From the NCBI GenBank assembly GCA_030704615.1, contig CM060731.1:7440001-7504000 (forward strand): a DNA stretch of 64,000 nucleotides, written 5' to 3'. Origin of the DNA: Takakia lepidozioides (lineage: Eukaryota; Plantae; Bryophyta). Positions 1,736 to 55,982 of this stretch are shown here, piece by piece. The position numbers and the translations under genes were made by a program. Position 1 is the first letter of the stretch; every line of letters starts with the position of its first letter. Under the pieces are notes generated by a model. That model was given only the letters and a program-made list of their open reading frames with translations. It did no database searches and was not told where the DNA came from.

Positions 1736-2158
1736 CACCAGCAATCGAAAGAATCACTCGGGACGGGAAATCTGGAACCTGAATGGGTTGCATTGTTCCG
1801 AAACAACATTGCGGCCAGTCTTGATGAGCACAACTTGGTTGTCTGACCGTTTTAACTAACAGTCCTGGCACTTGTCAGTGCGAACGTTCCTGTCTGCACC
1901 GAGAATACTGCTGGATCCACCCTCAGGAGAAACTGTCAGGAGATGTTATTTCGTCGCCGAATCGGCCATCATTGTCATACTTACTGGCTATGGAATCAAA
2001 CCTCCCACCTTCATGCATGTAGCTTGAAACAATACTTTCCACTTCAATGTGCGACTTCCAATCGTCGATGGACTCCGCAGATCCACTTAGATGGTGCCTG
2101 TGAGCCTTGGTCTGTCGCTATACTGAACCTCGCACTTGCCAACTCCGTGCGGTGTTCG

Positions 2159-5763: not shown

Positions 5764-6614
5764 GCTTGGCTTGCGGTCCCCATACAATGGTACGCCCATC
5801 CTTTTCGGATAGTAGAACTGTACTGCTGCCAGTACCTCAGACTCTGGCCACAGAAAGGTCCGACATATGTCTTGCCTACCAGTAACCTGTTTTGCTCGAA
5901 CTAAGATATTACTATATCGTTCACTTGTTTCCACGTGCATGTATTTTTGTATGTTGGAGGGTTCATGTTTTTCTGCTTTCCGAAAACTTGCTTTCCTCAT
6001 TCGACCTCCGACAAGGAAATGCGGCGCCGCATTTCCAAGTATCGTCGTAGGTACTGGTAGAGGCGGCCTTCGCCAACACCAAACCGCTCCGAAATTTCGC
6101 ACGTGCGAACCCTAATGCGGCACCCTATTTCCCAGTTCAGTTGCAAACCTTTCCCGCCGAATACCCGAAGAAGACAGAATTGTGAAGTACTGCAGACTGT
6201 ATTGGTGCAGACTCCATTGGTTCAATCGCGGCAAAAGGGTCAGCTTCATTCCAATGTTAAGGCATGTAAAACCGCGGAATACTCTATACAGGCCAGTATG
6301 CGACGTCCTTTTGCAGTGGTATACTGGATTTCCCGTTGCACGGTCACTTATTTCCATGAGCGGATCTAAAAAACCATGAGCGGACTTGTTACTGACGACA
6401 TATCTTCGCCGCATTACATGATCTGGAACGTCCAAAAACGGCAAGGTCAAATAAAAAACTATTATTTTAATACTTGTTTAATCTGCCGCATTTCCAAATT
6501 TGGAGGAATCCGCTCATGAAATCCGCGTATCTTAGACTTCGGCTCACCGCTCATGCGGCTCATGCGGCTCATGGCTCATGGCTCATGGTTTCTGCTCATG
6601 AAATAGTAAACCTC

Positions 6615-8402
6615 CTCCAGCTGAGGTACTCACGGACCAAGGGAGAGAGTTCTTGGGGGAGTTTCAGGCTTTGTGTGATAAAGCTTTGATAGACCATCGT
6701 ACCACTTCTCGGGATCATCCCGAGGCCGGTGGCTTGGCAGAGAGAGTGGTTCAAACAGTGAAGAAGGGTTTGCACAAGTATTGCTTGCAAAAGAGACACC
6801 AAGGAGATTGGGATCTTTATGTACCTTGGTTAGTCATGGGCTACAGGTTTAGCAAGCAAGCATCACTTGCCTCCTTCTCACCATATTTCCTTGTCTTTGG
6901 CCGAGAGCCGGATTTGTCTGCATCTATTCCCAGGGAGGCTGCAGTAGTCCTCAACCTTGATGATCCGGATGTGTGGACACAAGCATGTGCCCAGCACGCA
7001 AAGTTGGTTCAAGAGAGTCATGCCTATGGCTTTTGAGAACCTTGCTATTGCCCAACACCGAGACACATTGAGGTATGTCACTATACGTGGAGGGGGATAT
7101 CGGCCAGGTGTTCGGCGTTTCCACCCTGGGGACTATATGTATCTGCAGCAAACAGCACCTACGACCTTGGATGTCACAGCAGGACGTGTGATTCTAAGGG
7201 TCAGGGAGGTGTTGCCTTCAGGAGTGTTGATTCTGGAGGGTCAAGATGGCATGGTATGGAAGGACCATGTGCGTAATTGTGCGCCATGTCACCTTCTACA
7301 TGTGGATGGGTGGATAGATCCCAACCTTGCAGTGGTACCTGCAGGATTGCGTTGCATGTTATGTGGGCATGCTCGTGGTGCCGCCACTATGCTGGTGTGT
7401 GATCGATGCTCAAGAAGTTGGCACATGGGATGCTTGACACCACCTCTTGAGAGGGTTCCTGATAGAGATTGGTTATGTCCACACTACTTGGGATAGTGGC
7501 AGTGGATATGACTAGTGGCAGCTAACAAGACATGTGAGGCCAAGCTCATAGGAGTCAATACCCGAGATCTCAGGCTCAAGTTCACAGGTTGCAAGACGGC
7601 GACTAACGATGGGGCAACTCTTGTACCCGTCCTCTTGATCTATCGAGTTTGAGTGTAGTAGGGATAGTGGTGGAGGACTTAGTGAGGCTATGGCCACTAT
7701 CACATCTTGTGGCTACCTGGACTTAGAGGGACCTAAGCGCCAGCTAGGGGGGCGATTGTAATGGACTAGTGGCTGCACTAGTGGTGGCTAGTGGTTGTCT
7801 AGTGGCAACCTAGTGGTGCACTAGTGGTGGACTAGTGATAGACTAGTGTTTGGTGTGCACATGTGTTGTGTGGTTTTGGACAGCGATGTAGTTGTGTAGC
7901 AATATGTATGCGCACGACAACTGTCAAGTTATTTTACCACTAGTGTGAAGTTAGCTAGGAAATAGCTAGCTTTTATATAATGACATTTGGGATTGATCCA
8001 AGTGTCAATCCAGGGGCCAATATATGTTTGGGCACTTGACGTTGTTTTCTTCATGGCAGATCGCGATGGGCTCATCTTTCTCGAGTTGAGCCTCACCGCG
8101 TCTAGCTATGGCGCCGTAGTGTGGATTCCCCATGGCGTGGGGTGCACTTGGCTCGACTTAATATATGAGTGATGTTTCCATGTGCAAGTATGTGAGTTTG
8201 AGAGGGCTTGTGTGCTTGCATCATTCTTTTCTTTATCATTGTGATGGACTAGTGGCAGCCTAGTGATGGACTAGTGGCTGCACTAGTGGTGGCTAGTGGC
8301 AGTCTTGTGGTGGACTAGTGATAGACTAGTGTTTGGTGTGCACATGTGTTGTGTGGTTTTGGACAACGATGTAGTTGTGTAGCGATATGTATGCGCACGA
8401 CA
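6615..8402 (+). mobile_element. 3' part of Ty3/gypsy family A element: integrase tail, PHD, PPT and terminal repeats A(7757-7919)-AC-B(7922-8238)-T-A(8240-8402)
   Basis: Integrase core motifs, PPT AGGGGGGCGAT ending at 7756, and two 163-bp A copies. The element ends ...GCACGACA and is followed by AAGG of LINE sequence. Confidence 0.88.
6620..7496 (+). pseudogene. Ty3 integrase C-terminal half (rve) fused to a PHD finger
   Basis: LTDQGREF...HPEAGGLAERVVQTVK...SPYFLVFGREP; PHD CMLC...LVCDRC...WHMGCLTPPL...WLCP; frameshift near 7000. Confidence 0.9.
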
Positions 8403-10249
8403 AAGGGTTCGGGCATATGAAAATAATCGGGGGGCTAGAGCCGACGCCGTAACAGTCTGTTGGGAGTTGGGTGAGGGCACTAGGAGTACTGGTAGGTAAG
8501 CCACATATTCGCTTGGTTAGTTGAGTGATGTATTTGTCTAGTACTTTGAGATCCGGTAGGGAGAAGGGAGCGGCGTGAAAAGAGTATTGGACTTGTGGCT
8601 TAAGCACAGAGCCGATGATTGATAGTTTGGGTCTAATGGAGACAGGGGATTTAAGAAGAGCCAGACTTTTGTTAGATAGCTTAGCAAGTGTGGTGGTCTT
8701 CTGCACATGCCAGGTAAATGATGGGAATAGCTGGATGCCTACGTATGTGTAAGGCTCATCGGGTCCCAAAAAGGGGAAGGGGTTGTTTGGGTAATGGATA
8801 TAGAGTTTATAATGGGAAGCAATCTCAGTTTTTGTTAATTTACTGCGGTAGGTTGTTGCGGTAACGACGCACTTATGGAGGCTAAGTTCCATGCCTGACC
8901 ATAAGTTAAAGCGGGATAACTTGCTGACTTGTCGGTTGAGGTGTTGGGGTTTGTGAGCTAGGATAGCTAGGTCGTCAGCGTATGCGGCAGCGGAGATTTC
9001 ACTGAGGGAGGTTTTATAGTGATAGCCGAGATTTCCGCGTGCTAACCATCTTAGTAGAGGTTCTAAAATAATAATTAATAGGTATGGACTGAGGGTGTCA
9101 CCCTGGATGGTACCACGTAGGATAGGAATTAGGGGGGGTAGTACCATAGTATGAGCCGGAATATTCCGTAGTGCTGTTGGTATAAATGTTGCCAATGAGT
9201 TGGATGGCATCGATGGGATAACCGAGGTTCGTCATGATTGCAAGTAGTCTGGCATGGTCTAAGGATCCGAAGGCATTTTTAAAGTCTATATACAAGAGAT
9301 AGATATCTTGTTTAGTGAGCTTGGCATCTTTGAGGGCTGAGAGGACGTATTGTATTTGACGAGTTATATGCGTGGCTCGGAAGCCCTCTTGGGGGTCACT
9401 CAGAATATGGTGTTGTTCTCCGTAATTGGATAGCAGCGTGGTCAGTGTGATGGTAAACAATTTATAGATAGTATTGGCTAGGGCTATGGGTCTGTAGTTA
9501 CCGAGGTTAGTTGGGTCGCCTTTCTTAAATAGAAAGATGGTGCGGCTATGTTTCCAAGTAGGTGGGATACGCTTGAGTTGGTAACATAGTTTGAAAAATT
9601 TGAAGAAGAGGGTATGAAGATGGGGGTTGAGCGCTTGTAATATAGCGTTAGGAATCATATCTGGTCCAGGGGCTTTTGATTTGGGTAGACCTTTAAGGCA
9701 AGAGTCATAGAGATCTAGCGTGAATAGGTCATGTATGCGGTCCGTGGGTATCCCACGTTTGTCTAATGAGAAGCCGTCGAGGTCATGCCATGGGTAATGT
9801 TTGACTTTACATAAACAGTTGGGGTGGTGGTGGTCAGGGTGTAGGCATTTTGTGATAGCGAGCGTATATGAAGCGGATGTTTGTATCCATATTTCTTTGT
9901 TGATATCAGTGGGGCTTGTCAAGAAATGGCCCAATCGATGTTTAAGGCAGTCAATTGGTGGATTGAGCGTAGGGTTAAAGATGGCTTTGTGTGCTATTTT
10001 AGGATGGTCATGTAGGAGCTGGCCAAATGAGGTGATAAACTTTTTGTGGTTATCGCTAGCTTTTTGTTTAATTATAAGATCTGCGGCTTTTTTTGCGTCT
10101 CTTCCTAGCTTGGCGAGGGCAACAACCCATTTTCGGGATGGTACTGTGGTCCATAAGAGGAGGCAAGAGGGCTTGGCATACTGGGAGAGAGTTTAGGCAA
10201 ATAATGCGGGGGTCGCGTCTCCATTCTGTGTGATGATTGTTGGATGGGG
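8403..10249 (-). mobile_element. Non-LTR retrotransposon, middle fragment (RT domain)
   Basis: KAPGPD, NYRPIAL, QEGFR, YIDFKNAF, GTIQGDTLSP and AYADD in ORFs 9098-9934 and 8326-9210. Confidence 0.95.
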
Positions 10250-12144
10250 TGTCAAGTTATTTTACCACTAGTGTGAAACTAGCTAGGAAATAGCTAGCTT
10301 TTACATATTGACATTTGGGATTGGCTCAAGTGTCAATCCAAGGGTCAAGGCAGATTTAGGCCCTGGAGTGGTTATCTTCACGGCAAGCGCGGGAGGCTCA
10401 TTTTTCTTGAGTTGAGCCTCACCGCGCCTAGCTATGGCGCCGTAGTGTGGATTCCCCATGGCGTGGGGTGCACTTGGCTTGACTTGTATTTGAGTGATGA
10501 GGTTATATATGCATGAGTTTATGCTTCAGCTTTGTGAGCTCGCATGAGCTTGTGCTTGTATTCTTCTTCGTTATCACTCGAGAAAGATCAGCTCGAGTCT
10601 GTGAGTGCCATGTTCGAGTTGTTTTGTAGCACTTGTGTTTTCATGAGAAGCGGTTCAGCCTAGAGTGCAGGGATCCGTGCATGAGCCTATCCAAAGTGGA
10701 TAGAGTGCAAAGGCGAACAGGTTGCAGGTTTGCAATGGATAGAGAGGCGGGTAGCCTATGTTGAAGAGCGGCGTTGCATAGCTCAACGCTATGGAAACCA
10801 AGTTTGGGCTTCTAGTATGAAGCGGGGGAGATGCTGGTCTCGAGTGGGTGAACTGGTGGTCGTCTTCTTCAGCTGCAGGCCAAGTTAAGGAGCTACAGCA
10901 ATGTGGAGCTGCGAGGGTGTTAGATGTAAGTCACAGTTATCGGGAGCTCCAACTTCAAGCTCATAAGGAGGTATGAGTGAAGAGAGATGGCTGATTTCTC
11001 TTGTATGCAAGCCAATGCATTTGTGGCTATGTTGAGTTGGGGGTTTCAATTTGAAACTCCAGCAGTATGAGGGCTCTTGCCATGGCAAGAGCGGGGCTGG
11101 AACAAGAGCTAAGAGGTGTGGCAAGGCCATGGAATGTGCACCTAGGGTTTCAGAGCTTGGAAAAAAGTTCTTGCACCACAAGAGGAGTGTCTTGTGGCTG
11201 GAAATGTAAACCTTAGGGTTTCAGGAGCTTGGCAAGGGCTGTGGAATGCTTAGTCTTGTCTTAGAGAGCATCAAGGAGCCAAGGAGCCAAGATAGGGGGC
11301 TGATATCTCTTATGTGAAGAGGTTGCATGTGTGGAGCATGTATTCAGCTCATTGAAGCTTCCATCTTCAAGCTTGGAGGGCAAGCAAGGAAGAGGGAAGG
11401 GCTGACTTCCCTTATGTGAGGGCAATGCATGTGTGGAGCATGCTATCAGCCTGGTGAAGGCTTGCACTTTCAGGTGTGGGAGTGCAAGAAAGGAAGGAAG
11501 GGGCTGGTTTCCCTGTAGGGCATGTGGAGCATGCTTTCAGCCTGCTGAAGCTTGTATTTTCAGGTTTGTGGGTGCAAGAAATGAAGCAAAGGAGCTGATT
11601 CTCTTATGGTGAGAGTGGGGCATGTGTGGAGCATGCCTTCAGCCCATTGAGGCTCTTGTTTTCAAGCTTTAGAGAGCTAGAACGGAAGGTCTAGGGCTGG
11701 TTTCCACTTGGAGTGAAAGAAAAGCACTTGTAGGGCCTATGTGAGTTGGGGTTTCAACTTCAAGCTTGAAGGGAGCGCAACTCTTGAAGAAGCAGGTGTA
11801 GGGGGCTGGAATAGGCTCTAAGACAAATGCTATGGCCAAGGAGAGTGCTTGAATGAGTGCTCACAAGGGCTGGGAACCAGCAGGGCTTGGTTGTTTGCCA
11901 TTGAGTTTAGTAGCGTGTTTGGGGAGGCTAAGTGAGAAAGAAGGCTTGGTTTGTGGCAACCACCTCATGGCTTAGGGCTACTAAGATGGTGTGTGGGAGC
12001 CGAAAGAGCAAGAATACCTTGCTGATTTCCTCACAACCGCCATAGCTCGGTGGAAAGAAGCCTAGAGTCCAAGAGACACAAACCTTAGCTTGGCGTGGCT
12101 AAACCCCTTGGAGAAATGGCTAAACTGCCAGAGCGGCCATGGAT

Positions 12145-13330: not shown

Positions 13331-13989
13331 ACTGGTGGACTGCCTAAGGACTGGCATGTGGTCTTGAAGGCCGAATTTTGAAGCTCGTGGAGAGCAGTTT
13401 GAGGAGTATCTTCATGATATTCCCATGGTCATGGAAGTGAGGGAAGAGATGAGAGGAAGAGTGTTGGGATGAGGGCATGCTGGGGTTAGGCATTGCTTTA
13501 GCTTCTCTTCCTCGTAGTTTCCACCCTCTCATTAGGCCAAGACCTTTCCGTAGGTGGAGGCAAGAGTCAGTCCGGGTTTGGGCTGGGGTGTCCTTGCAGG
13601 AGCAACACCATGGAGTTGTTTTTGGTGTGGGGGAGTTGTCGTTCTGATTTCTTGTGTTTGGATCCCCTCCATACCTGCATGCTTGACTGTGCGCCATGCT
13701 AGTTTTGTGTGGGCGCTTGTTTTTATAGGTGATTGGTCCGGATTTGATCACCGGCCAGTCCTAGAGCATGCTGTCGATGGTGAGGCTGGGGTGATGACCA
13801 GCCAGACCATCATTGTTTCTCCTGTGGTGAGGTTGGAGGTGATGACTAGCCAACCATAGGAGTGCTTGCGGTGGATGCAAGTACAGGTGTAGGCTATGTT
13901 AGGAACTTAGTATTCCAAACCCTAAGCCGCAACAGGTTCTCTACCCGGTTACCTTGTGGAGAGGGGGTTAGGGACATGTTCATGACCGG

Positions 13990-16743
13990 TTGAGTGTCAA
14001 CACGGAGGTGCCACTAGTTGCTAGGGACAGTGCCGGTTCGAGCACTAGCGATACTAGTGGGTACACGAGACGAGGTGTGCGGTTTAGGCCACCTTCACCT
14101 CCTGTGTCTTCTACGGAAGGTTCTTATTCGGATTGTGAATCAGGAGGACTTATACCGGCGGTGCAAGTTGTTTCTTTGCCATTGTTGTGGGACACAATGG
14201 AGGAGATGTATGGAGCTACCAAGGGGCCACGAAGGTACTCTGGGGCGGTGGGCACCATCGAGTTGGATGATTTTATCCAAGAGTTTGATAGTTGGTGTGA
14301 TTTGCAGCAAATGCGCAATCCACAACTATTTACACCTTTCATGGCATGGAAGGGGCTGTTTCAGCACCTTGAAGGGCCGCCTATGGATGATTACCATGAG
14401 TTCAAGCGGGGGCATGAGGTTGAGATCGAGAGTGGAGGATGTACTGGTCACCTGACTATGTCTCCATCATTAGGGGCACTAGAGCCACGAGGGCAGTGGC
14501 TACACCTGCCGCTGCACCGGCAGCTTCAGCAAGTAGCAGTGGGACTAGTGGGACTGGTGGTACAGTAGCTACGACGTCCACCCAAGCCACTACCGCACCA
14601 GCACTAGTACCCGTGCCTGCCTTCAACCCTGTTGTGGAGTTATTCGAAGAGTTGAGAGGGAACTACCAAGGGGTGAGGACAGAGAAGTTACGGAGCTTGC
14701 AAGAGTTCCAACGGAAGCCGACCGAGAGCTTGAGGGAGGCTTTCACTCGCATGAGGTGCTTGATAAATGTAACCCAAGGGGTTACGGAATCTCAGGCAGT
14801 CCAATTCTGGTATGGGATATTGGACAAGGAGCTGAGGAGAAGGGTGCGGGATGCAACTCTCCTACAAGCGGCCCAAACCCACCTTAGCAAATGTATTTTG
14901 CTGGCAGAGCGGATAGAGCTCAACATGGTGGAGGAACGAGTGGTCATGGTGGGATTTGCTTAGGAGACACCACGGGGGTAGTGGTGCTCCTAGCCAACCA
15001 CTACCTCAACGTGCTCAAGGCAACAAGGGGGCTCAGGTGAAGCTCAGGGAAGGGCAGAGAGGACCTCAGATGCAGGGGTCTCTCCCTTCATTTGCTGGCC
15101 AACAACAGGCGGATGTGGTGTGCTGGACATGTGGAGGACCCCATGTCAAGAAGGATTGCCCAGAGGGAGGCAAAGGGCCGGCACATGCACAGCCTGCACA
15201 GTTGCAGTGTGGGCATTGTGGCAAGCACGGGCATGGAGAGGCCCAGTGTTATGGTTTGCATCCTGAGTTGCACCCAAGCCAGTTCCAAGGGAACAATGGT
15301 GGCCGGGGGCGAGGTGGAGCAGCCCAGAGAGGACGAGGTGGCCAGCCACGAGGTGCAGGCCAAGGGCAAGCTCAACATGGCCAATGACGCGGAGGTCAGG
15401 GTGTTGACCAAGGCATGGCCAACCGGCTTCAGCAGCTAGAGCAGAGGCTCGCTGCCATGGCTACAGCTCAGGTGGTACCGGCTCTAAGGCCGGATGGTCC
15501 ACCTCCTGCTCCTGAGGGAGGAGATATGGGAGGCATGGGATTCATGTGTGGAGCAGCACTACCACTAGTGCAGGTGGAGTCTGCTACAGCCGTGACTCGA
15601 GGAGCAACATGAGTTCCTGAGCCACGAGGTGCAGAGGTGGAGTTGGATCCACAGCGTGGGGAGGCAAGCCGTCAGGCGAGGCTTCCTCAGTCATTCACAT
15701 TGGCGGAGACAGTGTCGACGCCATCCATGGCACCTAGTTCTCGCCCGACTATTACGAGGCGGAGGTTACTATGTCATTGGGGAGAGCTACACGGGTAGCA
15801 CCACTACCTAGTGTTGCCAAGGCTACGGCAGCTAGTGTGCTGCTAGGAGCGGCCACATCTGTGTGCCAGGCTCCATTGTTCTTGGCTACCATGATTGCGA
15901 CGCCGGGGGTAAGACCAGCTGAGGTGTTCAGGCTGGCAGCTACACTCTGTGAGAGTGGGGAGGTTACTTCATCTTCTGCGGAGATAGTGGGAGGTGTAGT
16001 GCCGGAGGGATCCTCGGATTTGAGGGTCAAGATTGCCATGGCGGCGCCATGGCAAGCTGCAGCTGCCAGGTTGATGGAGCTGCCAGCTAGGCCAGCCATT
16101 GAGCGCGCCATGGTGACACCTGGAGTTGTCATGTTAGACAACCAGGATGACATTTTCTATTTGAGTGGACCGGCAGGCAAGAGGTACCGACCACTGCGGG
16201 TCTTGTTGGACTCGGGAGCTCAGCCATTGATGCTGGACAGAGCTACTATTGCAGGCTTGGGCCTCACGGAGGCGGATATGGAGCCTTGTCCTTTCCAGAT
16301 ACAGACGTCTCTGGGAGGATTGGAGCAGGCTCGGGGCATGACACGGCGTGAGTTGGCTATCAGACTATGGCCGGATCACCCTACAGATGGCTCAATGATG
16401 CGAGCCAAGGCCATTGTAATAGACGCGGTCTCATACGATGTCCTGGCTGGTGGGCAGAGTGTTGTACCCCATGGGCTTCACCCTGGATTTTTGGGAGGAG
16501 TCAGCTTCCTATAGGCCTGCATGGCAGTCAGGGGAGGGCCGACATGTGCAGCTCCATGTGACGTTCATAGGAGGAGTTGCGGTTGCCCAGCGAGGCAAGA
16601 TGCCGACACTAGCAGCATTCACAGCGGCAGTGAGTTGGCCTAGAGAGTTGCTTGAGGGCAACGCTCATTCAGAGGATGTGCCACCTCCGGGAGAGCAGGA
16701 TGACATGTATGGTATGGCGGAGTTGCCTACCATGGTTGCTTAG
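13990..16743 (+). pseudogene. gag (two zinc knuckles) plus aspartic protease, frameshifted
   Basis: PRRYSG...DDFIQEF; FQRKPTESLREAFTRM; CWTCGGPHVKKDC and CGHCGKHGHGEAQC; protease motif VLLDSGA. Confidence 0.9.
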
Positions 16744-16920
16744 ACTCCATTGTGGGGCACGAGCAAGGATTTGCAGCGGGATGCTGATCAACGGGTGCAA
16801 CAAGCCTGGGTGGAGGCTTTTGTACCATCAGGAGAGGAGGAGAGTGCGGGGATTGCACCAGGACCACCTCAGTTGTCTCCATTGGACACCACACCTATTG
16901 TGTGGCAGTATCCGGATGAA

Positions 16921-17875
16921 GGCATTTGTCTTCTGGACTTGTTTGGCGGGATCAGCACCGGATTGGCTGTTGTGTTACAGGCAGGTGTACGAGTTTGGCG
17001 TTACCTGTATGTGGAGAGGGATGAGACTGCACAACTCATTTCACTTCGCCATATTGCTCAGTTGGTGCAGCGGTACCCTGAGTTGTTGCCGGTGTCTGCA
17101 GTTCGTGGATATCAGCAGGCCTTGCCAGCAGACATTTCGTTGCTGGGGGCGCAGGATTTGGAGCGGGTTGGCTCCATTGATCTGGTAGTGGCAGGATGGC
17201 CCTGCCAAGGGCATTCATCAGCTGGGTATGGCAATGGATTGCAAGACTCGAGGTCGGGTCTGTTTTGGGAGATGGTGCGGGTTTTGCGCCACTTGCAGAT
17301 TCATCAAGCTGTATCTCCAGCATACATCTTGGAGAATGTGCCACTGATGGGCGATTCTCGGGCCAGGGTGATGGCCAGTGTGCATCAAGTCCAGTCGTGG
17401 CTTGGGTCAGCAGTGTTGCTAGATGCAGCTACAGTGGGGTCATGGGCTCATCGTCCACGGCTATGGTGGACTAACTTGATGCCACCCGCACTGCTCAAGC
17501 GTGCATTTGATGGGTGGCAGCGGCCAGCACATCTCACAGTGGATAGCATTCTGGACACAGGGAGGCAGTCTCAGCGTGTGAGACACGATGACCGTTCGCC
17601 TTTGGCAGTGGTCAACAAGGTGGGTCAACCACGAGCAGCATTACCTACACTGCTAAGTTTCCCAGGATCGCATGCTTTCAGGGATAGTGGACCTGGCCTC
17701 TTGTGGGATGCTCAGTTGCAGCAGTTAGTGGAGCCTAATGCTAACAAGCGTGAGTGGACAATGGGTTTTACCACTGGTACCACAGCGGTGTTGTCTCTTT
17801 CTGAGGCATCACGTTGTCAAGTGTTGGGGCAAGCAATGGATCTCAATTGCTTGACCTGGATTATCAGCTTGGCTA
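16921..17875 (+). CDS. DNMT3-like C5 cytosine methyltransferase domain inside the retrotransposon polyprotein (uninterrupted frame)
   Basis: Motif I LDLFGG, II YVE, IV AGWPCQ (PCQ at 17200-17208), VI ILENV, VIII AHRPRLWWTNL, IX/X MGF...LGQAM. Confidence 0.93.
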
Positions 17876-18259
17876 TGGTGAGCAACGCAGAGTGCGGAGA
17901 GTACACTTCCCTCGATGGTCTCTCTGCCTACCGAGACGGTACAGGCAGTGAGGTGGGGGTGAGCATGTGAGGACCACGGGGTGCATGCATCTGGCACACG
18001 TGGGAGGTGCTCGAGGTTCAGAGGGGAGTTGGCAGCCAAGGTGGCGATGAAAGATGAGGTTGGGGATTTTCTCGGGTGGAGGAAAGTCCTTGAGGATGAG
18101 ATGATGGGCAAGATGAGGCCTTGTCACTGACTGAGCAGGTAGGGAGTACTGCTCAAGAGGTTGCAACATAGCAACCACTGGACGCGTCCTCGACCTCTAA
18201 GCCCACTGGACTTAGGGTTGCAGTTACGGAGGACAATTGGGAGCCTGACATTGGACCCA

Positions 18260-19993
18260 TTGTCACCGGAGGAGAGAGACGACGTATACGGCAGTTCCTG
18301 AGGGCTTATAGGAATTGCTTGCCTTCAGTTTGAAGGACTTGGGACACGGAAGGGTCAAGAGATCCATATTGAGTTGGCCACTGACACGCCAATCTTTCGG
18401 AGACCCTATAGATACAGTGACATGGAGGGGTCTTTGATTCAGATGAGGACTCAAGATCTCTGGGAGGCTGGTTTGGTGGAGCTCTTGATGGAGAGTATGC
18501 TTCAGCCACAGTGATGCCAGCCAAGAAGGATGTCTATGGCAATGGACGGAGAGACGTATGTGCGGTGATTACCGGCCTGTAAATCGTCAGACCAAGTCGA
18601 TAAGTATGCCATGCCAACAAGAGGAGATCTTTGATGCCATCGGGCATGCTAAGGTCTTTAGCACTTTGGATTTACGATCGGATGTTACCAGTTGCCAATC
18701 AAGGAGGCGGAACAAGCAGAAGACGGCATTCTGGGGGATCAATGAGCATGTCAAGGATTGCCTATATCAGTGGCCGGTTCTTACCATGTGGGCTTCTTTA
18801 AGAATGCTCCTGCAGAGTTCAAAGAGGTCATGGATAGGACTAGCAGGGGTGTGGACTTTGCTCGGTGCTACATAGATGACACATCATCATCTTTAGTGTT
18901 ACGATGGAGGAGCTGGAGAGACACTTCAGGTGGTTATTGGAGCGCTTAAGAAGCGACGGATTGAAGTTGCATCCGGGGAAGTGCAAGTTTTTCCACAACC
19001 AGATTGGTATCTGTCACCTGATATATCCTAGAGGATTGGGGGTATACAGCAGACTAAGGTAGAGGCCATTGCCAAATTCCACGCCCCACGGATGTGAGCC
19101 GAGTTCGAGCTTTCATGGGGTTGGCCAATACTAGTGACGGATTGTCAAGGGATTTAGTACCATTGCAAAGGCTCTAACCAAGCTGACCAAGGTGGACCAG
19201 AGTGGCAGTGGGAAGATGAGCAGAGGAACGCGCTTTTCAAGAGCTCAGGGCAGGTTGACCTCGGCGCCTATCCTGAGACGACCTATCAGGGCGCGTCCCT
19301 TTCAGCTGCATACGGATTGGAGCATGATGGGGCTTGGAGCGGTCCTCACCAGGTGGATGATGAGGGAAGAGAGTTGTAGTGGCTTATGCTAGCCGCTTCG
19401 AACAACGCTGCAGAGGCTAAGTACAGCTCATATGAGGGAGAATGCTTAGCTGCAATGTGGGCCGTGGCACACTTCAGGTGCTATCTATACGGCAATCTTT
19501 TCACCCTTGTCATGGCTCACCAACCACTCAAGTGGTTGATGGAGTCAGACAAGCTTACGGGGAAGCTTGCACGGTGGGCACTCATACTCCGGAGTATGAC
19601 GTTCAGGTTGTGCATCGACCGGGTTTGGTCAATCGGGATGCGGATGGATTGAGTCGCAATCCATGCATGAGCCAGCAGGATGACACTGGAGCTCGGTGGC
19701 ATGGTGAGATAGACAAGGAGATGGTGCAGGGATGGCACGCATCTGCATTTTTGTGTATCTTGGCATCGGGAGGTCAGGTTGGACCTACAACATGGATGGC
19801 TGTAGACGGAGGACCCTGAGGCTATCGATGAGCCAGGTGGTGCCAGAGATATACATGAGGATTCGGCTGTGTTGGACTGCATCCGCACGGGAGACACGGC
19901 AGCCACTGTGACTGCCAGGGAGAGGGATCGGATCCTGCAACGAGCCAGAGGTTCAAGTGGGAGGGGATACACCTACTTCGAGTGTGGGAGGAT
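18260..19993 (+). pseudogene. RT, RNase H and integrase N-terminus, heavily frameshifted
   Basis: RMCGDYRPVN, FSTLDL, KTAF, NAPAEF, YIDD, LHTDWS, YSSYEGECLA, HQPLKWL, NRDADGLSR. Confidence 0.9.
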
Positions 19994-20999
19994 ATTGGGA
20001 ATTCATTTGGTTCCATGTGCCAAGTGAGGTGAAGAACCTCACTTGGGACGTGGGGAGTCCACGTGAGACATAGGCAGGCTCATCTTCTTCTAGTCGAGCC
20101 TCTCGAGGCCTTTTTCGCCGCCATAGCTCTAGTACTTGAGATGGAGAGTGGGTGAGATCTGTATGGTGGAGTCCTTTAGCAAAGGTGCCATTGGCTTGAC
20201 TTATATAACGTGATAGAGTGGGTTCACCTCTTGTCACCATTTCCGTATCACTAGAAGAAGACCTGACTGACATCGATGGTGCAAGGTGTTAGAATAGTGA
20301 GAATTGTGTGGAGGAGAGCTTGATAGATAGCTCTTAAGTTAAAAGGTGATGCAGGGTTTGTAAGAAGAAAGTCTTGTGGTGTGTATGTACAAGAAGAGGT
20401 CTTCAAGGAGAGCCCCATTGAAAAGTTTGAGAGCTTGTGAAAAAAACTCTTTGTTCTGCAAGTGTTGCAGGGTTTGAGGAGTTCAAGAAGAGCTGGGTGT
20501 TGTTAAGGAAGCAAGCGGTGCATGTGTGGAGCATGGTTTCAGCTTGTGGGAGTCTTCAACTTCAAGCTTACAAGAGCTATGAGTAGAGGTAGACATCTGA
20601 TTTCTCTTTGGGGCAGAATAGTGTATTTGTAGAGCATGCTTTGAGTTGGGGTTTCAATCCCAAGCTTGGGAAGAGCATGTCTATGGAAGTGGCAAGTGCA
20701 GGGCTGGATTAGGAGCTCTAAGAGGTGCACTATGGCCATGGAAGGAAACACTATGAGTGCATGCAATGGCTAGAAGAGGGTATGCCATAGAAAGCTCAAT
20801 AGCTTGTTCTATGCTTGTTTCAATAAGTTCCATAGAGAAAGAGAGCTTGTTGTGTGGCAAATAGCTTACTCAGGGAGTTAGAGGCACTCTTGGTGGTCTA
20901 TTGATGCTCAAGAAACCAAGAACAACACCTCTGGTTGCTCCATAGAAGCCATAGCTTGTTGCAGCAATCGCAGAGGCAAAGCGGCGCAAACCCTAGCTT

Positions 21000-22150: not shown

Positions 22151-22902
22151 GACTGTTTGAAGTCCAAGTTTGCGAACTTCTTGAACCTCGGTGGGTCTAT
22201 GTTAGGGGCTGATTGAGGGCACATTTCAGAAGTTCATGGCAATAATTTGAGGGCTCTTGAGAGTTATTTGAGAGGTTCTTTAAGGATAGTCTTGTCTATT
22301 GCTCGAGCAAGAGTGAGTATGAAGATAGGGGGAGTAATGGGATGAGAGCATTCTGGGCTTAGATATTGCTTTAGCTTCCCTTCTCTATAGTCTTCCATTA
22401 TCTTTGTAGGCCAAAGCTTTTCCGTAAGCGGAGGCAGAGCTAGTTTGGAAAGAGACTTGGTCATCTTGCAGGTTTATTGGAGTAGCAAGGAGATCGATTG
22501 ATTTAAGTGTGGGAAGTGTTGTTGTTTGAGTTTTCTGTGTTTGGATCCTCCTCCCACACATGCATGCTTGACTGTGCGCCATGCTAGTTTGGTTTGGGCG
22601 CTTGCTTTTATAGGTGGTTGTGCCGGAAATATTGTGGCCGGCCAATTCTAGAGCATGCTGTCGGTGGTGAGGCTGGGGTGATAACCAGCAGACCATCATT
22701 GTTTCTCGTATGGTGAGGTTGGGTTGATGACCAGCAGACCATAGGAGTGCCTGGTGCAGGTGCAGGTGCAGGTGCAGGTTCAGGTTAGGAATATAGTATT
22801 CCAAACCATAAGCCGCAACAGGTTCTCTACCCAGCTACCTTGTGGAAAGAGGGATTAGAGACAAGTTGATAGTCGGTTTGAGTGTGAGTTTTCATCACGG
22901 AG

Positions 22903-25900
22903 GTGCCACCAGTTGCTGAGGAGAGTACCGGTACGAGCACCAGCGATACTAGTGGGTATACAAGACGAGGTGTGCGGTTTAGGCCAACTTCACCTTCAGT
23001 GTCTTCTAAGGAAGGTTCAGACTCGGAGGTAGGAGGATTCTCGCCGAGGGTACAAGCCATTTCCGTGCCATTGTTGTGGGATACGATGGAGGAAATGTAT
23101 GGAGCTACTAAGGGGCCACGTCGGTACTCTGGAGCTGTGGGCACCATCGAGCTTGATGATTTCATACAAGAGTTTGATAGTTGGTGTGATTTGCAGCAGA
23201 TGCACAATCCACAACTGTTTACGCCTTTTATGGCGTGGAAGGGGCTGTTTTAGCACCTTGAGGGGCCGCCTATGGATGACTATCATGAGTTTAGGCGGGG
23301 AAATGAGGTGGAGATTAAGGAGTAGCGATCCTGACTATGTCTCCATCACTAGAGGCACAAGGGCAACGGTGACACCAGCAGCGACACCAACATCCCCAAC
23401 TGCAAGCACTAGTAGTGGGACAAGTAAAGATGGAGCTGGGAAATCCACTCAAGCTCCTGCTGCAGCACCAGCACCCGTGCCTGACTTTAACCCAGTTGTG
23501 GAGTTCTTCGAGGAGTTGAAGAGAAACTACCAGGGGATAAAGACGGAGAAATTGCGGAGCTTGCAAGAGTTCCAGCGCAAGCCTACTGAGAGTTTGAGGG
23601 AGGCTTACACGCGCATGAGGCGATTGATAAATGTAACCCAAGGGGTTACGGAAGCTCAAGCAGTCCAATTCTGGTATGGGATATTGGACAAGGAGCTGAG
23701 GAGAAGGGTGCGAGATGCAACTCTCCTACAAGTGGACCAACCCACCTTAGCAAACGTGTTTTTGCTGGCAGAGCGGATAGAGCTCAATATGGTGGAGGAG
23801 TGAGTGGTCATGGTGGGGTTTGGTAAGGAGACACAACGAAGCGGGGCTCCTAGCCAACAACAACCACTACCCCAATGTGCTCAAGGCAACAAGGGGGCTC
23901 AGGTAAAGCCCAGGGAAGGACAGAGATGATCTCAATTGCAGAGGTCACTTCCTTCATTCTCAGGCCAACAATAGTCGGGTGACATGTTGGGATTGTGGAG
24001 GACCCCATGTTAAGAGAGATTGCCCGGAGAGAGGCAAAGGGCCGGCACAGGCACAGCCTATACAACTACAGTGTGGGCATTGTGGCAAGTATGGGCATGA
24101 AGAGGCCCATTGTTATGACTTGCATCCTGAGCTACGGCCAGGCCAGTTCCAAGGGAACAATGGTGACCGAGGACGTGACAATGTAGTCCAGAGAGGTAGA
24201 GGAGGCAGAGGTCGTGGTGGAGGTCGTAACCAAAACCAAGGAGCACAGGGTCAAGGTCAAGGTCATGACCAAAGCATGGTGGATAGGCTTGCCCAGCTAG
24301 AGCAACGTCTTGCTACCATGGCCACTACTCATGTTGCGCCAGCTCCAAGGCCTGAGGTTCAAGTCCCACCTGCACAACCTCCTATGCCTAGGGAAGACCA
24401 GATTGGTATGGGCTTCATGTGTGGAGCCGCACTTGCAGGACCATTGCATGTGGACTCTGTAGCTATTGTCACTCGAGCAGCAACGCGTGCTCCTGAGCCA
24501 AGAGGAGCACATGTGGATTTTGATCCACAAAGAGGGGAAGCAAGTCAACAGACAAGGCTTCCACAGTCTTTCACATTGGCTGAGACAGTGCCAACTACGC
24601 CATCGATGGTACCCGCTCGCCCAAGTGTGTCCGAGGTAGAGCCACGAGTGCCAGTGGGGAGAATTGGTGTGGTTCGGGAAATGCCAGTGGGTGGTGCTGC
24701 AAAGCAAGGTGCAGCCAGTACATTGTTGGGGGCGGCTACGGAAATTTGCCACGCTCCATTGTTTTCTGCCATGACCATTGCAATGCCGGGGATTCGGCCA
24801 GCTGTTGTGTTCAGACTAGCAGCTAGACTCTGTGAGAGTGGTGATGCATCGGCACTATCTGCGGGGATAGCGGATAGTGCATGGATGCCCTGGACTCAAG
24901 GGTGAAGACAGCCACAGCTGCACCATGGCAAGCGGCAGTTGCAAGGTTGCAGGAGTTGCCAGCTAGACCAGCCATTGAGCGTAGTATGGTGACTTCTGGG
25001 GTAGTCCTGGTGGACAATCAGGATGATATGTTTTAGTTGGGTGGCCCAGCCGGGAGGAGGTTTAGACCACTGCGGGTCTTGTTGGACTCGGGAGCACAGC
25101 CATTGATGTTGGGAAGAGCAGCAATTGCAGGCTTGGGCCTTACAAAGGCGGATTTGGAGCCTTGTCCTTTCCAAATTCAAACATCTTTGGGCGGTTCAGA
25201 GAAGACACGAGGGATTATACGCCATGAGCTCTTCATTTGATTACAGCCGGATCATCCTACGGACGGCTCAGTCATGAGAGCTAAAGCTAGTGTTACGGAC
25301 GCGATGTCCTATGATGTGTTTGTTGGTGGGGCGGTGTTATACCCCATGGGATTCACTCTGGACTTTTGGAAGGAAACGACATCCTACAGGCCGGAATGGC
25401 AGTCAGGAGATGGCCGACGTGCACTGCTCCCAGTGCGGTTTATTGGGAATGTAGCAGTGGATCATAGGAACATGATGCCCACATTGGCTGCATTCTCAGG
25501 GGTGGTGGCTTGGGGTGGTGAGCTCTTGGAGGGCAATAGCCATGCAAATGATAGGCCATCACCTGATGAGGACAAACAATTGGCATACAAGGCTGATTTG
25601 CTTCCTCATGTGCCTGTGCATATTCCACTGTGGGGTACGGTTGGGAATTTGCATCGAGTAGCAGGCGAGTGTGTGCACCAAGCATGGCAGGAGGCCTTTC
25701 CATTGATGAGTGAGGGGAGTTCAGTGACATCACCTGGACCTCCTGAGTTAGCTCCTTTGGACACAGTGCCCATTACCTGGCAACCATCTGACTCAGGGAT
25801 TTGTTTGCTAGACCTGTTTGGAGGCATGAATACTGGGCTTGCAGGAGTGTTGCAAGCAGGGATTAAAGTACGCAAGTACTTGTATGTGGAGAAGGATGAG

Positions 25901-28900
25901 ATAGCTCGGCGTATTTCTATGCGCCACATCGCCTTGCTCACACACCAGTATCCTGAGTTGTTGTCTCTCTCAGCAATTCAAGGGTATCAAAAGGCTTTGC
26001 CAGCAGACATTACCTTGCTGGGGGCGGATGATTTGGACCGGCATGGTTCCATTGACTTGGTGATAGCTGGATGGCCTTGCCAATGACACTCTCCCGCAGG
26101 TCATGGGAATGGCTTGCATGATGCACGATTGCATTTGTTTTGGGAGATGTTGCGAGTTTTGCGGGACTTGCAGACGAGGCAAGTGCAACCTCTAGGCTAT
26201 ATCTTGGAGAATGTTCCTCTTATGGGGGATTTTCGGGCCAGGGTTATGGCCAGTGTGCATCAAGTGCGGTCTTGGATTGGATCGGCGGTGCTATTGGATG
26301 CAGTAGCGGTGGGATCACGCGCGCATCGACCTCGATTGTGGTGGACCAATCTTGCACCACCAGAGCTGCTCAAGAGAGCATACGATTCCATTCAACGGCC
26401 ACCCAATCTCGCGGTTGAGGGCATTTTGGACCAAGGGAGGCAACCACAGAGAGTGCGACATGATGATCGTCCACCTCTAACAGTGGTCAATCGAGTGGGG
26501 CAACCACGTGCGGCCTTGCCTACACTCATGAGCTTTCCCTTGTCTCATGCTTTCCAAGACAATGGTCCTGGGTTGATTTGGGATAGTGTGCTACAACAAT
26601 TGGTGGAGCCCAATGCGGATGAGCGAGAGCGGGCAATGGGATTTGCCACCGGCACTACAGATGTGTCAGCTCTGTCAGAGGCATCATGCTGCCAAGTGTT
26701 GGGTCAAGCAATGGATCTAAATTGCTTGACATGGGTCATTGGCTTGTGCATGGCTGAGCAACGGAGATTGCAAGCATTGATGGCTACTTCTGCACTCCCA
26801 TTGGATAGTGCATCCTCCCTACGAACTGGGATGGTTGAGGCAGTGAGTGGGGGCGAGCATAAGATCATGGGTTGCAAACACCCATGGCAAATGTGGGATG
26901 ATATACGCAAAGAGAGAGTCATTGGATCTCTCAAGCAGCAGTATGAGGAGTGGGGAGAGCCATGGACTGAGGATCAGTTGGAGGCCAAGGTGGCCAAGGT
27001 TTTTGAAGAGGTTGAGAATGTTTCTTGCTCAGAGGATGTTCTCAAGGTGGCTATGGCGGAGCAAGTGGAGACTACGCCACAGTCAGATTGGGCGGACAAG
27101 GCCCAAGATGTTGCTATCTAGCAACCAAAGGATTCGTCTTCGACCTCCAAGCCTGGTGTACCCAAGGTTGCAGTCACTGAGGACAATTAGGAACCAGATG
27201 TTGGACCTACAGTCACCGGAGGAGAGAGACGGAGGATCCAGCAGTTTCTAAGGGCTTATAGAAATTGCTTTGCCTTCGGTTTGAAGGATTTGGGGAGTTT
27301 GAAGGGTCGGGAGATTCGTATTGATTTGGCAAGTGACACACCAATCTTTCGAAGGCCCTACCGGTATAGTGACATGGAGAGGTCATTGATCTAGTCACGG
27401 ACTATGGAGTTGTTTGAAGCTGGATTGGTGGAGTTGTCAGGCGGGGAGTATGCGTCGGCAACGGTGATGCCAGCTAAGAAGGATATCTATGGCAATTGGA
27501 CAGAAAGAAGGATGTGTGGGGACTATTGTCCTGTGAACCGTCAGACTAAGTCCTATAGATATGCCAAGCCAACTCCAGAGGAGATCTTTGATGCTATTGG
27601 GCATGCAAAGGTGTTTAGCACATTGGACTTGCGATCCGGTTACCACCAGTTGCCAATCAAAGAGGCTGACAAGCAAAAGACGGCATTCTGGGGGATTGAC
27701 CAACACGGGAAGGATTGTTTGTACCAATGGCGGTTCTTACCGTTTGGGTTGAAGAATGCTCCTGCAGAGTTTCAGAGGGTCATGGATAGGATTCTCGCGG
27801 GGCTAGACTTCGCCCGGTGCTACAGTGACGACATCATCGTCTTTAGTGCTACGGTTGATGAGCATACGGTTGAGACACCTTCAGGTGGTGTTTGAGCGCT
27901 TGAGAGCGCACGGGTTGAAACTGCACCCCGGAAAGTGCAAGTTCTTCCACAATCAGATTGAGTATATGGGCCACATGATATACCCTGGAGGATTGGGTGT
28001 TCAATAGACAAAGGTAGAGGCCATTGCATGCATTCCACGTCCCATGGATGTGAGCAGAGTTCGTGCTTTCATGGGATTGGCAAACTACTATCGACGGTTT
28101 GTCAAGGGATTTAGTAGCATTGCAAAGGCTCTTACCAAGTTGACCAAGGTGGGTCAAGATCGGCAGTGGGAGGAGGAGCAAGAGAAAGCCTTTGAGGAAC
28201 TCAATGCTCGATTGACTTCTGCACCTATTTTGAGGCGGCCTATTCGGGGGCGGCCTTTCTAGCTACATACGGATTGGAGTATGCTGGGGATTGGAGCAGT
28301 GCTCACACAGGTGGATGATGAGGGAAGAGAGTTCGTAGTGGCATATGCTAGCCGCTCGAACAATGATGCCGATGCGAAGTATAGTTCCTATGAAGGGGAG
28401 TGTCTAGCTGCGGTATGGGCAGTGGCACATTTCAGATGCTACCTCTATGGCAATCTCTTCACCCTTGTCACGGATCACCAACCATTGAAGTGGTTGATGG
28501 AGTCAGACAAGCTTACAGGGAAGCTTGCACGGTGGGCACTTATGCTTCAAGAGTACGACTTCCAGGTGGTGCATCGAGCCGGTATTGTCAATCGGAATGC
28601 AGATGGATTGAGTCGTAATCCATGCACAAGCGAGCATGATGATACTGGAGCTCGGTGGCATGGTGAGATAGATGAGGAGATGGTGCCAGGATGGCATGCA
28701 TCGACCTTTTTGTGCATTCTAGCAATGGGAGCTCAAGCTGGTCCATCCCATGCGATTGGTCATATAGATAGCATGCATGACGATCCAGAGACTAGTGAGG
28801 AGTTTGGTGGTGCTAAGGATATGCATGAAGATGAAGCAGTGTTGGCATACCTTCGTACCGGAGAGATAGCAGCCAGTGTGACTACTAATGAGAAGAATCG

Positions 28901-29816
28901 GGTCCTACAACGAGGCAAGAGGTTCAAGTGGTATGGGACTCACCTACTCCGGGTATGGGAGGATGAACGAGTGAGGATTGTGTCTCATCCAACACAACGA
29001 GCGCGATTGGTACGCCATGCCCACGAGGAGTTGGGACATTTTGGGGTGCGGCGCACTCATAGTTTGCTGCAAGGGTAGTATTGGTGGCGGGGCATGCATA
29101 CGGATATGCAGCAGTTAGTGGCAAGGACACCTAGGAGATTGGGACCTTCAATTGCCTTGGCTAGCTATGGGCTATAGGTTCAGCAAACAAGCTTCACTTG
29201 CCTCCTTCTCACCTTACTTTCTTCTCTTCGGCCGAGAGCCGGATTTGCCTGCATCTATTCATAGGGAGGCTGCAGTAGTTCTCAACCTTGATGATCCAGA
29301 TGTGTGGTCACAAGCATGTGCCCAGCGGGCAGAGCTGTTCAAGAGAGTCATGCCTATGGCTTTTGAGAACCTTGCTATTGCCCAACACCGAGACACATTG
29401 AGGTACGCTACTATACGTGAGAGGGGATATCGGCCAAATGTTCGGCGTTTCCACCCTGGGAACCTACGACCTTGGATGTCACAGCAAGACGTGTGATTCT
29501 AAGGGTCAGGGAGGTGTTGCCTTCAGGAGTGTTGATTCTGAAGGGTCGAGATAGCATGGTATGGAAGGACCATGTGCGCAATTGTGCGTCATGTCACCTT
29601 CCACATGTGGATGGGAGGATAGATCCCAACCTTGCAGTGGTACCTGCAGGGTTGCATTGCATGCTATGTGGGCATGCTGGTGGCACCGCAACCATGTTGG
29701 TGTATGACAAATGCTCAAGGGGGTGGCACACGAGATGCTTGACACCGCCACTTGAGGAGGTTCCTATCGGAGAATGGTTGTGTCCACGATGCCTTGGACA
29801 GAGGTGGTGGGCATGA
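22903..29816 (+). pseudogene. Family B polyprotein remnant gag-PR-DNMT-RT-RH-IN-PHD
   Basis: Zinc knuckles, VLLDSGA, DNMT motifs, YSDD, RNase H, HEELGHFG and PHD. Many TAG/TGA stops. The integrase core is deleted at ~29123. Confidence 0.92.
25796..26745 (+). pseudogene. Second DNMT3-like domain (stop codon right after PCQ)
   Basis: LDLFGG, AGWPCQ* (TGA at 26084-26086), ILENV, AHRPRLWWTNL, ERERAMGF...LGQAM. Confidence 0.92.
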
Positions 29817-34250: not shown

Positions 34251-34269
34251 TGCCAAGGGTAACTACTAA

Positions 34270-53500: not shown

Positions 53501-53504
53501 TCGC

Positions 53505-55721: not shown

Positions 55722-55982
55722 AGACTCGTCTTCTTCTAGTCGAGCCTCCCGAGGCCTCTCTCGTCGCCATAGCTCTAGTACTTGAGATGGAGAGTGGGTG
55801 AGGTGTGTATGGTGAAGTCTTTTAGCAAAGGTGCCATTGGCTTGACTTATATAACGTGATAGAGTGGGTTCACCTCTTTTCACCATTTCCGTATCATTGT
55901 GGCGTGGCTTTCTAGGACTATATGCTAGGAAGTGTGGTTGGACAACGATGTATGTTGTGGCACGATGCTTAGGTGCACGACA
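55722..55982 (+). repeat. Family B terminal repeats: 3' part of B (to 55896), T, complete A (55898-55982)
   Basis: Matches 20078-20250 and 30075-30159. Ends GCACGACA and LINE DNA follows. Confidence 0.92.

Follow-up and report, generated by a model that had tools for sequence, protein, structure and literature searches.

A 64,000-nt stretch of contig CM060731.1 of the bryophyte Takakia lepidozioides (this whole stretch is called the window below) carries the remains of retrotransposons of two families, A and B, in which the terminal repeats are split into two segments, also termed A and B, with the general order B–internal–PPT–A–NN–B–x–A (PPT, polypurine tract; NN, a two-nucleotide spacer; x, the join between B and the terminal A). 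These elements meet host DNA at the boundary between A and B and not at the outer ends of a long terminal repeat (LTR), and this observation, first made in an earlier note on the same DNA, is real and general. Circle-opening integration by a Ty3/gypsy variant is likely to lie behind it. In the model that we consider probable, the outer ends of the complementary DNA (cDNA) would be joined, and the DDE integrase would then open the upstream LTR at an internal CACGACA-GC-TGTCA site, giving permuted B–internal–A–B–A copies flanked by 4-bp target site duplications (TSDs).

Copies of the repeats in the window were collected by self-BLAST. The right end of a family A element reads PPT-A-AC-B-T-A-AAGG on the plus strand (Table 1; the G-run of the PPT lies at 7747-7752), and on re-reading all the coordinates given for these parts in the earlier note were correct. 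Its two copies of A (A1 and A2) are 88.7% identical, and its B is 96.8% identical to a copy at 40623->40307 and 87.0% identical to another at 10250-10499. The 5' ends consist of B alone, as had been claimed: these two lone copies, at 10250 on the plus and 40623 on the minus strand, each open with TGTCAAG next to unrelated DNA. The AAGG that follows the terminal A recurs beside the latter copy at 40624-40627 on the minus strand (CCTT on the plus strand), and a long interspersed nuclear element (LINE) continues across the two sites, since residues 214-457 of the LINE homologue P0199 align with 9135->8395 and residues 458-611 with 40625->41077, and the alignment of many further homologues also picks up again at 40625. 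The TSD interrupts the LINE, and the LINE is therefore the target of the insertion. A LINE that itself aims at the GACA-NN-TGTC junction, the alternative raised earlier, is ruled out by the same fact.

Contigs from public runs of the same organism (X1 and X3, which are one sample) were aligned to regions of the window, and loose ends were read among the best 24 of 426 for 7600-8500 and the best 12 of 154 for 55740-56060; low agreement among them means many different flanks. Among the ends listed, 31 contigs of X1 (agreement 0.38) and 17 of X3 (0.39) have loose ends at 8402, 19 of X3 have them before 7922 (0.39), and at 55982, the end of the terminal A of family B, there are 49 in X1 and 49 in X3 (0.37). 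The summed depth of X1 in region 7600-8500 falls from 1.3 million to 558 beyond 8405, which we do not read as copy number. Other contigs run on past 55982 with TGTCATGG after two bases, and PPT-like sequence stands before A. No diverse set of loose ends was found at the outer LTR ends among the best 24 of 426 and 12 of 154; rarer conventional ends may occur beyond these. The ends at the A|B boundary are not due to chance, and they place the junctions of element and host where the earlier note had put them.

Relatives were gathered by a scan with the integrase C-terminus, and the best 80 of 504 confirmed metagenome stretches together with three loci from genome collections gave 83 loci, mostly from short-read metagenome assemblies. 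In 67 of the 83 loci A follows the PPT; in 42 of these rows A leads over a spacer to B, and in 25, which have 22 distinct flanks, it borders on host DNA, the B–internal–A form that had been predicted. The spacer is 2 nt long in all 42 rows, GC being the most frequent (21), followed by AC (11), AT (4), GT (4), TC (1) and AA (1); four spacer assignments made by pattern matching were corrected by eye, with L053 added and L003, L036 and L050 removed. These 42 rows comprise 32 with A-NN-B-x-A (23 distinct insertions), four in which A-NN-B is followed by a primer binding site (PBS), three that reach the end of the contig, two with a truncated B, and L083, which is unassigned. The junction of L083 is a perfect palindrome, ACGTGACA-GC-TGTCACGT, and L031 and L041 have pieces of B-x-A that are not clean solos. 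All 13 distinct full 5' copies of B start host|TGT, never with A before B, and the B-x-A-B–internal–A form, listed earlier as no more than possible, is thus absent from them. All four A|host elements with a visible 5' end likewise start with a single B, and 22 of 45 distinct 3' ends are PPT-A|host. In none of the 67 scored rows does unrelated host DNA come after a complete B, and a complete A-NN-B|host is likewise absent; with the contig ends at A|B, this does not agree with most copies being ordinary AB–internal–AB elements. CACGACA and TGTCA are kept across families and the outer ends are not (the B of family F3 ends without CA, and the starts of A vary).

An exact 4-bp TSD, the length given in the earlier note, is present in five of the ten copies with both ends (L017, L021, L059, L005 and the window copy), and three of four bases agree in L061 and L003, compared with matches at 4 bp in 2 of 90 cross-locus control pairs. 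None of the nine complete metagenome copies has a 3-bp or 5-bp duplication, and the TSD sequences (CATA, AAGG, ATGT, ACTA) are unrelated to one another. In a viral collection, 41 pattern matches included no relative of the element. The three loci from prokaryote genome collections (L081, L082, L083), among them contigs of cyanobacterial and Halorubrum metagenome-assembled genomes, are probably eukaryotic contamination of such genomes.

Because the PPT precedes A and a self-priming PBS directly follows B, A-NN-B is the true LTR; B-x-A was considered for this role as well and is ruled out by the positions of PBS and PPT. Just after the 5' B come bases that form the reverse complement of sequence lying about 150-170 nt into B. 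A match of 8-17 nt of this kind was found inside B in 13 of 15 5' copies and is at least 11 nt long in 10; its sequence differs in each of five families, and none of 300 shuffles reaches 11 nt. The two misses are the copy at 10250, the end coordinate of which is 4 nt short, and L026, and in L017 and L067b the best match lies elsewhere in B. The same self-priming arrangement is described for Tf1/sushi and Tcn1 in PMC6317226. With the PPT and the self-priming PBS placed for an A-NN-B LTR, the RNA would be that of an ordinary LTR element, and the terminal A would be dispensable for making it.

How the terminal A arose is suggested by its alleles and by its join to B. Among the 12 elements of family F2 with both A copies complete, 505 site-pairs are shared within the element, 81 are position-specific and 43 are crossed; 23 transversion or indel alleles are common to an element's own A1 and A2, against a mean of 6.05 after shuffling, with none of 1000 shuffles reaching 23, and nine of the 23 lie within the first 60 columns. 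In F3, with three elements only, ten site-pairs are shared, four position-specific and two crossed. Among 13 F2 insertions the join comes in five forms; CA-AT-ATACATG accounts for six and CA-ATACATG for four, and the other three are a longer join, one that includes a G of the PPT, and a deleted one. F1 has two joins that retain GAGT or CGAGT from the PPT side, of which one also has filler, and PPT-side bases are retained at the join in L071, L010 and L020. Since A2 tracks its own A1 and the B–A join varies, the terminal A was likely made anew by end-joining, and a variable join with remnants of the PPT is what end-joined ends of linear cDNA would leave. The joining of the outer cDNA ends, proposed earlier from the window, gains support from these variable joins and their PPT-side bases.

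The proposed route would begin with an RNA whose start lies some 150-170 nt into the 5' B and whose end lies in the 3' B, and which primes itself through the pairing described above. Normal two-jump reverse transcription would then yield a linear AB–internal–AB molecule in which both A copies come from one RNA copy, as an element's own A1 and A2 share alleles. The outer ends of this molecule would be no substrate for the integrase, and end-joining would leave a variable scar with bases from the PPT and the PBS side, which fits the variation seen at the join. At the palindromic CA-GC-TG the integrase would nick after CA on both strands, and this would account for the fixed spacer, the termini and, with the ends inserted 4 bp apart, the TSD. 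Such a 2-nt staggered cut would produce two CA-3'OH ends with 2-nt 5' overhangs, and CA-3'OH with a 2-nt 5' overhang is the shape of processed retroviral ends. The absence of B-x-A-B from 13 5' ends, where a symmetric circle would give about half (0.5^13, ~1e-4), suggests that the upstream junction alone is chosen. The upstream LTR is completed first in standard reverse transcription, and here too it would probably be double-stranded before the downstream one, which could explain the choice. Either 1-LTR circles or A-by-A recombination could give rise to B–internal–A copies, and since the RNA of such copies would have no 3' R, they would be dead ends. We lean very slightly towards joining before strand transfer, in a circle, over joining afterwards as the repair of a broken chromosome, because the 8-bp A of the Chlamydomonas element Gypsy-7a (see below) would be short for integrase grip in linear DNA, if Gypsy-7a works alike. 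Foamy virus and HIV integrases are reported to cleave palindromic LTR-LTR junctions (PMC1180852, PMC4372172).

Several points weigh against this model. The six elements of F1 show no coupling of A1 and A2 (four site-pairs shared, 10 position-specific, 16 crossed), and its own A1 is the nearest neighbour of A2 in only five of the 12 F2 elements. The two commonest F2 joins are one AT unit apart and could come from slippage after insertion, a process that could not explain the PPT remnants at joins. Three of the ten complete copies (L071, L043, L026) have no TSD. A-NN-B is followed by the PBS in L011/L015, L034 and L081, each time downstream of the integrase; L081 is a circular collapsed contig, and the others are unexplained. 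Some B–internal–A copies may be assembly jumps, the relatives being what they are, short-read metagenome assemblies. The circle, the RNA start and the cleavage are all deduced from inserted copies only, and a closed circle would have two identical junctions, so that the choice of the upstream one would be explained only by the proposed timing of the LTRs. In L011 (3246-3878) and L015, A-GC-B-PBS directly abuts an inverted piece of 5' B, either an autointegration product or an assembly artefact.

A Pfam search of the window copies found reverse transcriptase (RT), RNase H, gag, a C5 methylase (PF00145) and a PHD finger, and the intact relative L081 has protease, methylase, RT, RNase H, H2C2 (PF17921), rve (PF00665) and PHD. 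Together with the D..E motif in the window this agrees with the rve integrase of the earlier note, and no recombinase family, tyrosine recombinases included, was found by Pfam in 38 open reading frames (ORFs) of the window or in 37 ORFs of L081, L059 and L021. The RT is closest to Ty3 (E 6.7e-100), and the top PDB matches of the methylase are DNMT3A (E 2.9e-9). From the second D to the E of the integrase there are 34 residues in the window (6602-7036) and in P0001, P0003, P0058, P0082 and P0099, whereas D(35)E is the usual spacing; the shorter one may mark a clade. Liverworts supply the nearest named homologues (63-69%), followed by Klebsormidium, Closterium and Pleodorina. In the Pleodorina proteins P0082 and P0182 a methylase-like region comes after RNase H and not before RT as in the window element, so this methylase would have been moved or separately gained. 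The Klebsormidium retrotransposon proteins compared have pairwise identities of mostly 35-50%, with the methylase motif in none and no verified KnitGypsy sequence among them.

Of the features of Ty3/gypsy elements, the gag-protease-RT-RNase H-integrase order, a DDE integrase with a zinc-binding domain, PPT and primer site, and a short TSD are present, and two complete collinear LTRs meeting the host at their outer ends are absent (13 of 13 5' ends are host|B). The split direct repeats of PAT/Ngaro elements are present, and their tyrosine recombinase and lack of a TSD are not matched. Two features of Gypsy-Dnmt3, a Dnmt3-like C5 methylase in the polyprotein and the DIRS-like order X-coding-Y-X-Y, are both present. 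With both the twin LTRs of Ty3/gypsy and the recombinase of PAT/Ngaro lacking, the element is best filed, on its repeats and domains, as a Ty3/gypsy variant of Gypsy-Dnmt3 type. Up to the cDNA stage it would behave as a Ty3/gypsy element, and at insertion likely as a circle-opening DDE element. The self-priming PBS and the Dnmt3-like domain, both missed in the earlier note, place it.

The repeat order is that of split-direct-repeat elements (PMC5890265), and replication in the manner of PAT/Ngaro combined with a DDE enzyme would directly account for the single permutation: the RNA would run through B-x into the terminal A, the join would be inherited, and the circle would form during reverse transcription by annealing of the incomplete termini to the internal A-NN-B with no end-joining. 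The same 1-nt join in both window families and the similar joins of F3 would suit an inherited join, but between the close relatives L071 and L075 the join differs and retains PPT-side bases, A2 has private alleles of its own A1 even in the first 30 nt, and the PPT and PBS are positioned as an ordinary AB LTR requires; we therefore hold this explanation to be unlikely. A free closed 2-LTR circle opened equally at either of its two identical junctions, as the earlier note literally had it, fits the ends, the spacer, the TSD and the variable join as well as our model does, and the share of PPT-A|host among 3' ends is about the half that it predicts. It would need the B-x-A-B–internal–A copies to have been lost by B-by-B recombination or in assembly, however, since B-x-A-B is missing from the 13 5' ends of relatives (~1e-4) and from both intact ones in the window, and a lone B opens every A|host element whose 5' end is visible. 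For Gypsy-7a a preprint speaks of a few insertions that hold more, or less, than a single copy, whereas PMC9940879 describes one and the same 15.4-kb element at the 86 laboratory insertions, and opening at either junction seems to us decidedly improbable.

Two other explanations dispense with the internal cut by the integrase. The repeat order is common to tyrosine-recombinase retroelements and host genes were searched in part, so a tyrosine or other site-specific recombinase encoded elsewhere might integrate the circle at A|B with the DDE integrase uninvolved. Unrelated 4-bp TSDs with CA termini are the signature of DDE enzymes, though; the rve domain with its H2C2 is intact and conserved, and the ORFs searched in the window and in three relatives hold no recombinase family, which makes such help in trans very improbable. 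Ordinary AB–internal–AB elements might also mimic the pattern through nested insertion, a LINE targeting GACA-NN-TGTC or assembly error, in a window that is heavily rearranged and has its one TSD pair split and inverted. Against this the flanks at the A ends are diverse and not LINE, the LINE is the target, and the layout is found again in relatives (23 distinct insertions) as well as in a curated algal library; we give this explanation hardly any credence. The internal opening of the upstream LTR after end-joining remains the model that we favour.

Both halves of the family B layout drawn in the earlier note are present, A-GT-B at 30075-30310 and B-T-A|host at 55722-55982, but the whole is a composite of two fragments 25 kb apart, between which 18 bp of B are absent in comparison with the copy at 19994-20250. 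Being a composite, this structure offers no pair of flanks for a TSD. The two halves of the family A TSD are 32 kb apart and in opposite orientation, and the family A insertion was thus rearranged after integration. Both of its pieces break off, as judged by eye, at DNA-transposon-like ends near 6603 and 39727, which suggests that the rearrangement was driven by a transposon. If the block ~39728-55721 had formerly been inverted to the left of 6604, the LINE and TSD halves and both family B fragments would be rejoined.

The window has two large DNA-transposon-like units, 200-6603 and ~32000-39727, whose long subterminal arrays consist of 53-bp units at 224-1715 and of palindromic 117/139-bp units at 34190-38044; their ORFs end in a CxC...CKH motif and had no Pfam match among those scanned. 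Where the B of family B is cut, 30312-31108 duplicates 15544-16339 of the family A internal region in inverted orientation (93%), and a chromovirus integrase end (SH3 and chromodomain; 55045-55821, minus strand) adjoins the family B fragment at 55722. Tandem arrays occupy the long 5' untranslated region of both families (12100-13300 and 21400-22200; 10/41-bp and 67-bp units). A host gene at 48711-50695 (minus strand) with a G-patch domain and an RRM-like exon probably encodes a splicing factor.

Table 1. Coordinates of the retrotransposon parts and of the target LINE in the window.
Feature	Positions	Strand	Basis
Family A integrase C-terminal half (second D and E of DDE, 34 residues between) and PHD finger; frameshifted, left-truncated	6602..7496	+	PF00628, alignments
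Polypurine tract AGGGGGG	7746..7752	+	same place in relatives
A1, first part of the true LTR (5' part of U3), ends CACGACA	7757..7919	+	self-BLAST
Internal junction CACGACA-AC-TGTCA, candidate integrase cleavage (att) site	7913..7926	+	sequence, contig ends, relatives
B2, remainder of the LTR (presumably rest of U3, R, U5)	7922..8238	+	self-BLAST
Complement of the PBS that follows 5' B copies (putative self-primer, RNA 5' end)	8074..8086	+	pairing search
x, 1-nt B/A join; same base as before TG on the PPT side	8239..8239	+	sequence
A2, terminal A copy, right end of the element	8240..8402	+	self-BLAST, contig ends
TSD AAGG, right copy	8403..8406	+	LINE homologue alignment
Target LINE, half bearing RT	8403..10249	-	Pfam, homologues
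Second family A copy: 5' B (10250-10576) and self-priming PBS; TGTCAAG start after host DNA	10250..10588	+	self-BLAST
Second family A copy: degenerate gag-protease-Dnmt3-like methylase (16744-17967)-RT-RNase H	13448..19993	+	self-BLAST, Pfam
Family B 5' B (left-truncated; B copy 19994-20250) and self-priming PBS	19994..20261	+	pairing search
Family B gag-protease-methylase-RT-RNase H-integrase-PHD, degenerate	22321..29813	+	self-BLAST, Pfam
Family B PPT, A (30075-30159), spacer GT and initial 149 bp of B	30064..30310	+	self-BLAST
5' B (40623->40307) with PBS; same copy as the right end at 8402	40295..40623	-	self-BLAST, pairing search
TSD AAGG, left copy (CCTT on +)	40624..40627	-	sequence
Target LINE, other half (RNase H 43302-43850)	40624..44471	+	Pfam, homologues
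Family B fragment: B up to 55896 (its 3' part), T, terminal A (55898-55982); host follows	55722..55982	+	self-BLAST, contig ends

Every copy seen is a permutation that needs joined outer cDNA ends, and the lineage may therefore use the circle route as its normal cycle. We see an even chance that a large green-plant LTR lineage, from volvocine algae to bryophytes, integrates only through a cut at a CA-GC-TG palindrome that its template encodes inside the LTR, after obligatory end-joining of the linear cDNA, with LTR circles obligatory too, and is active now in laboratory strains of Chlamydomonas. If so, this would be a third route of retroelement integration, beside the insertion of linear ends by DDE enzymes and the integration of circles by tyrosine recombinases, and DNA circles usually considered dead ends would become a required step of a life cycle. 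It is an old question in retrovirology whether integration can proceed from LTR circles or whether these lead nowhere, and in HIV they have long been considered dead ends (PMC4372172). The element would also link DDE retroelements to the layout of tyrosine-recombinase elements, and with Gypsy-7a, whose ends are laid out alike and for which 86 recent laboratory insertions are known (PMC9940879), the route would be open to direct observation. Annotation tools that need twin TG...CA LTRs and a TSD are expected to drop or mis-bound such elements, as their TSD comes only after the extra A; the main text of an LTR-FINDER-based plant survey (PMC6317226) mentions neither PHD nor methyltransferase.

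The earlier note knew of no described Ty3/gypsy element with this architecture, a statement that does not hold, since the layout is noted for KnitGypsy-Dnmt3 and in the left LTR of Gypsy-7a. In de Mendoza et al. 2018 (PMC5890265) the Fig. 4c legend gives KnitGypsy-Dnmt3 DIRS-type repeats with Gypsy domains, and this streptophyte Gypsy-DNMT3 has the same DIRS-like repeat order and Gypsy domains as the window element; the main text is silent on a mechanism and on the sequence of the junction, and neither 'target site' nor 'PHD' appears in it. In a 2026 preprint, 'Gypsy-DNMT3' appears, in the text available, as a name only. Craig et al. (PMC9940879) report for Gypsy-7a_cRei a left LTR without its last 8 bp and 86 new insertions. 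Its end, PPT-GACCGACA-GC with a left LTR lacking those 8 bp, resembles that of the window element, from which it differs in the 8-bp A, a TGG-type PBS and a PHD listed before INT, and it may represent another clade. Among the first 11 Gypsy entries of the supplementary library of PMC9940879 (places 7-50 of 158 term matches), seven (2a, 2b, 3, 6, 7a, 7b, 7c) have an internal part that ends in a copy of the LTR 3' end plus GC, 5a is mirror-image-like, 5b lacks an internal part, and entries 1 and 4 have the conventional form. The likeness of Gypsy-3 and Gypsy-6 rests on the end of the internal part, the library being silent on the A of the left copy; Gypsy-6 also has, by eye, a self-priming-type match like that of the window element. 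A search with six codon variants placed the integrase motif roughly, probably in Gypsy-3 and Gypsy-6, with no match near Gypsy-7a. The seven families are annotated there as an ordinary LTR plus an internal part, and neither the portion of PMC9940879 consulted nor that of its preprint version gives a mechanism. The literature search, whose coverage excluded REM1 (Perez-Alegre 2005), the Craig 2021 thesis, Repbase, the PMC5890265 supplements and part of the PMC9940879 supplement, returned no account of the integration route or of a target-site analysis; the literature searched mentions the layout in passing and has nothing on the att site, the TSD, the self-priming, the asymmetry or the mechanism.

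With Ty3/gypsy elements (Metaviridae) of the self-priming Tf1/sushi-Tcn1 type, the window element shares the domain order, a Ty3-type RT, the PPT, the self-priming PBS, the DDE integrase and a 4-bp TSD; unlike them, it lacks two whole bounding LTRs, ends at an internal site, and has a PHD finger instead of a chromodomain, a methylase in pol and a D-to-E spacing of 34. PAT, Ngaro and TOC1 elements share its repeat order and, likely, a circular intermediate opened at a junction stored inside the element. PAT/Ngaro elements are not known to have a staggered-cut TSD, and in contrast to these groups the window element has a Ty3-type RT, a 4-bp TSD, a PPT and a PBS, and no tyrosine recombinase. The copy-out-paste-in transposases of IS3 and IS30 are DDE enzymes that act on abutted ends with a short spacer in a circle; those elements are DNA transposons whose spacer comes from the donor flanks, whereas the spacer here would be a fixed GC copied through RNA. 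In the cleavage of 2-LTR circles by foamy virus and HIV-1 integrases a DDE enzyme cuts a palindromic CA-n-TG in continuous DNA, much as is proposed here (PMC1180852, PMC4372172). There, however, the cut falls at the outer LTR-LTR join and yields a normal provirus by a side path, whereas here the site would be encoded by the template inside the LTR, and all copies seen are permuted.

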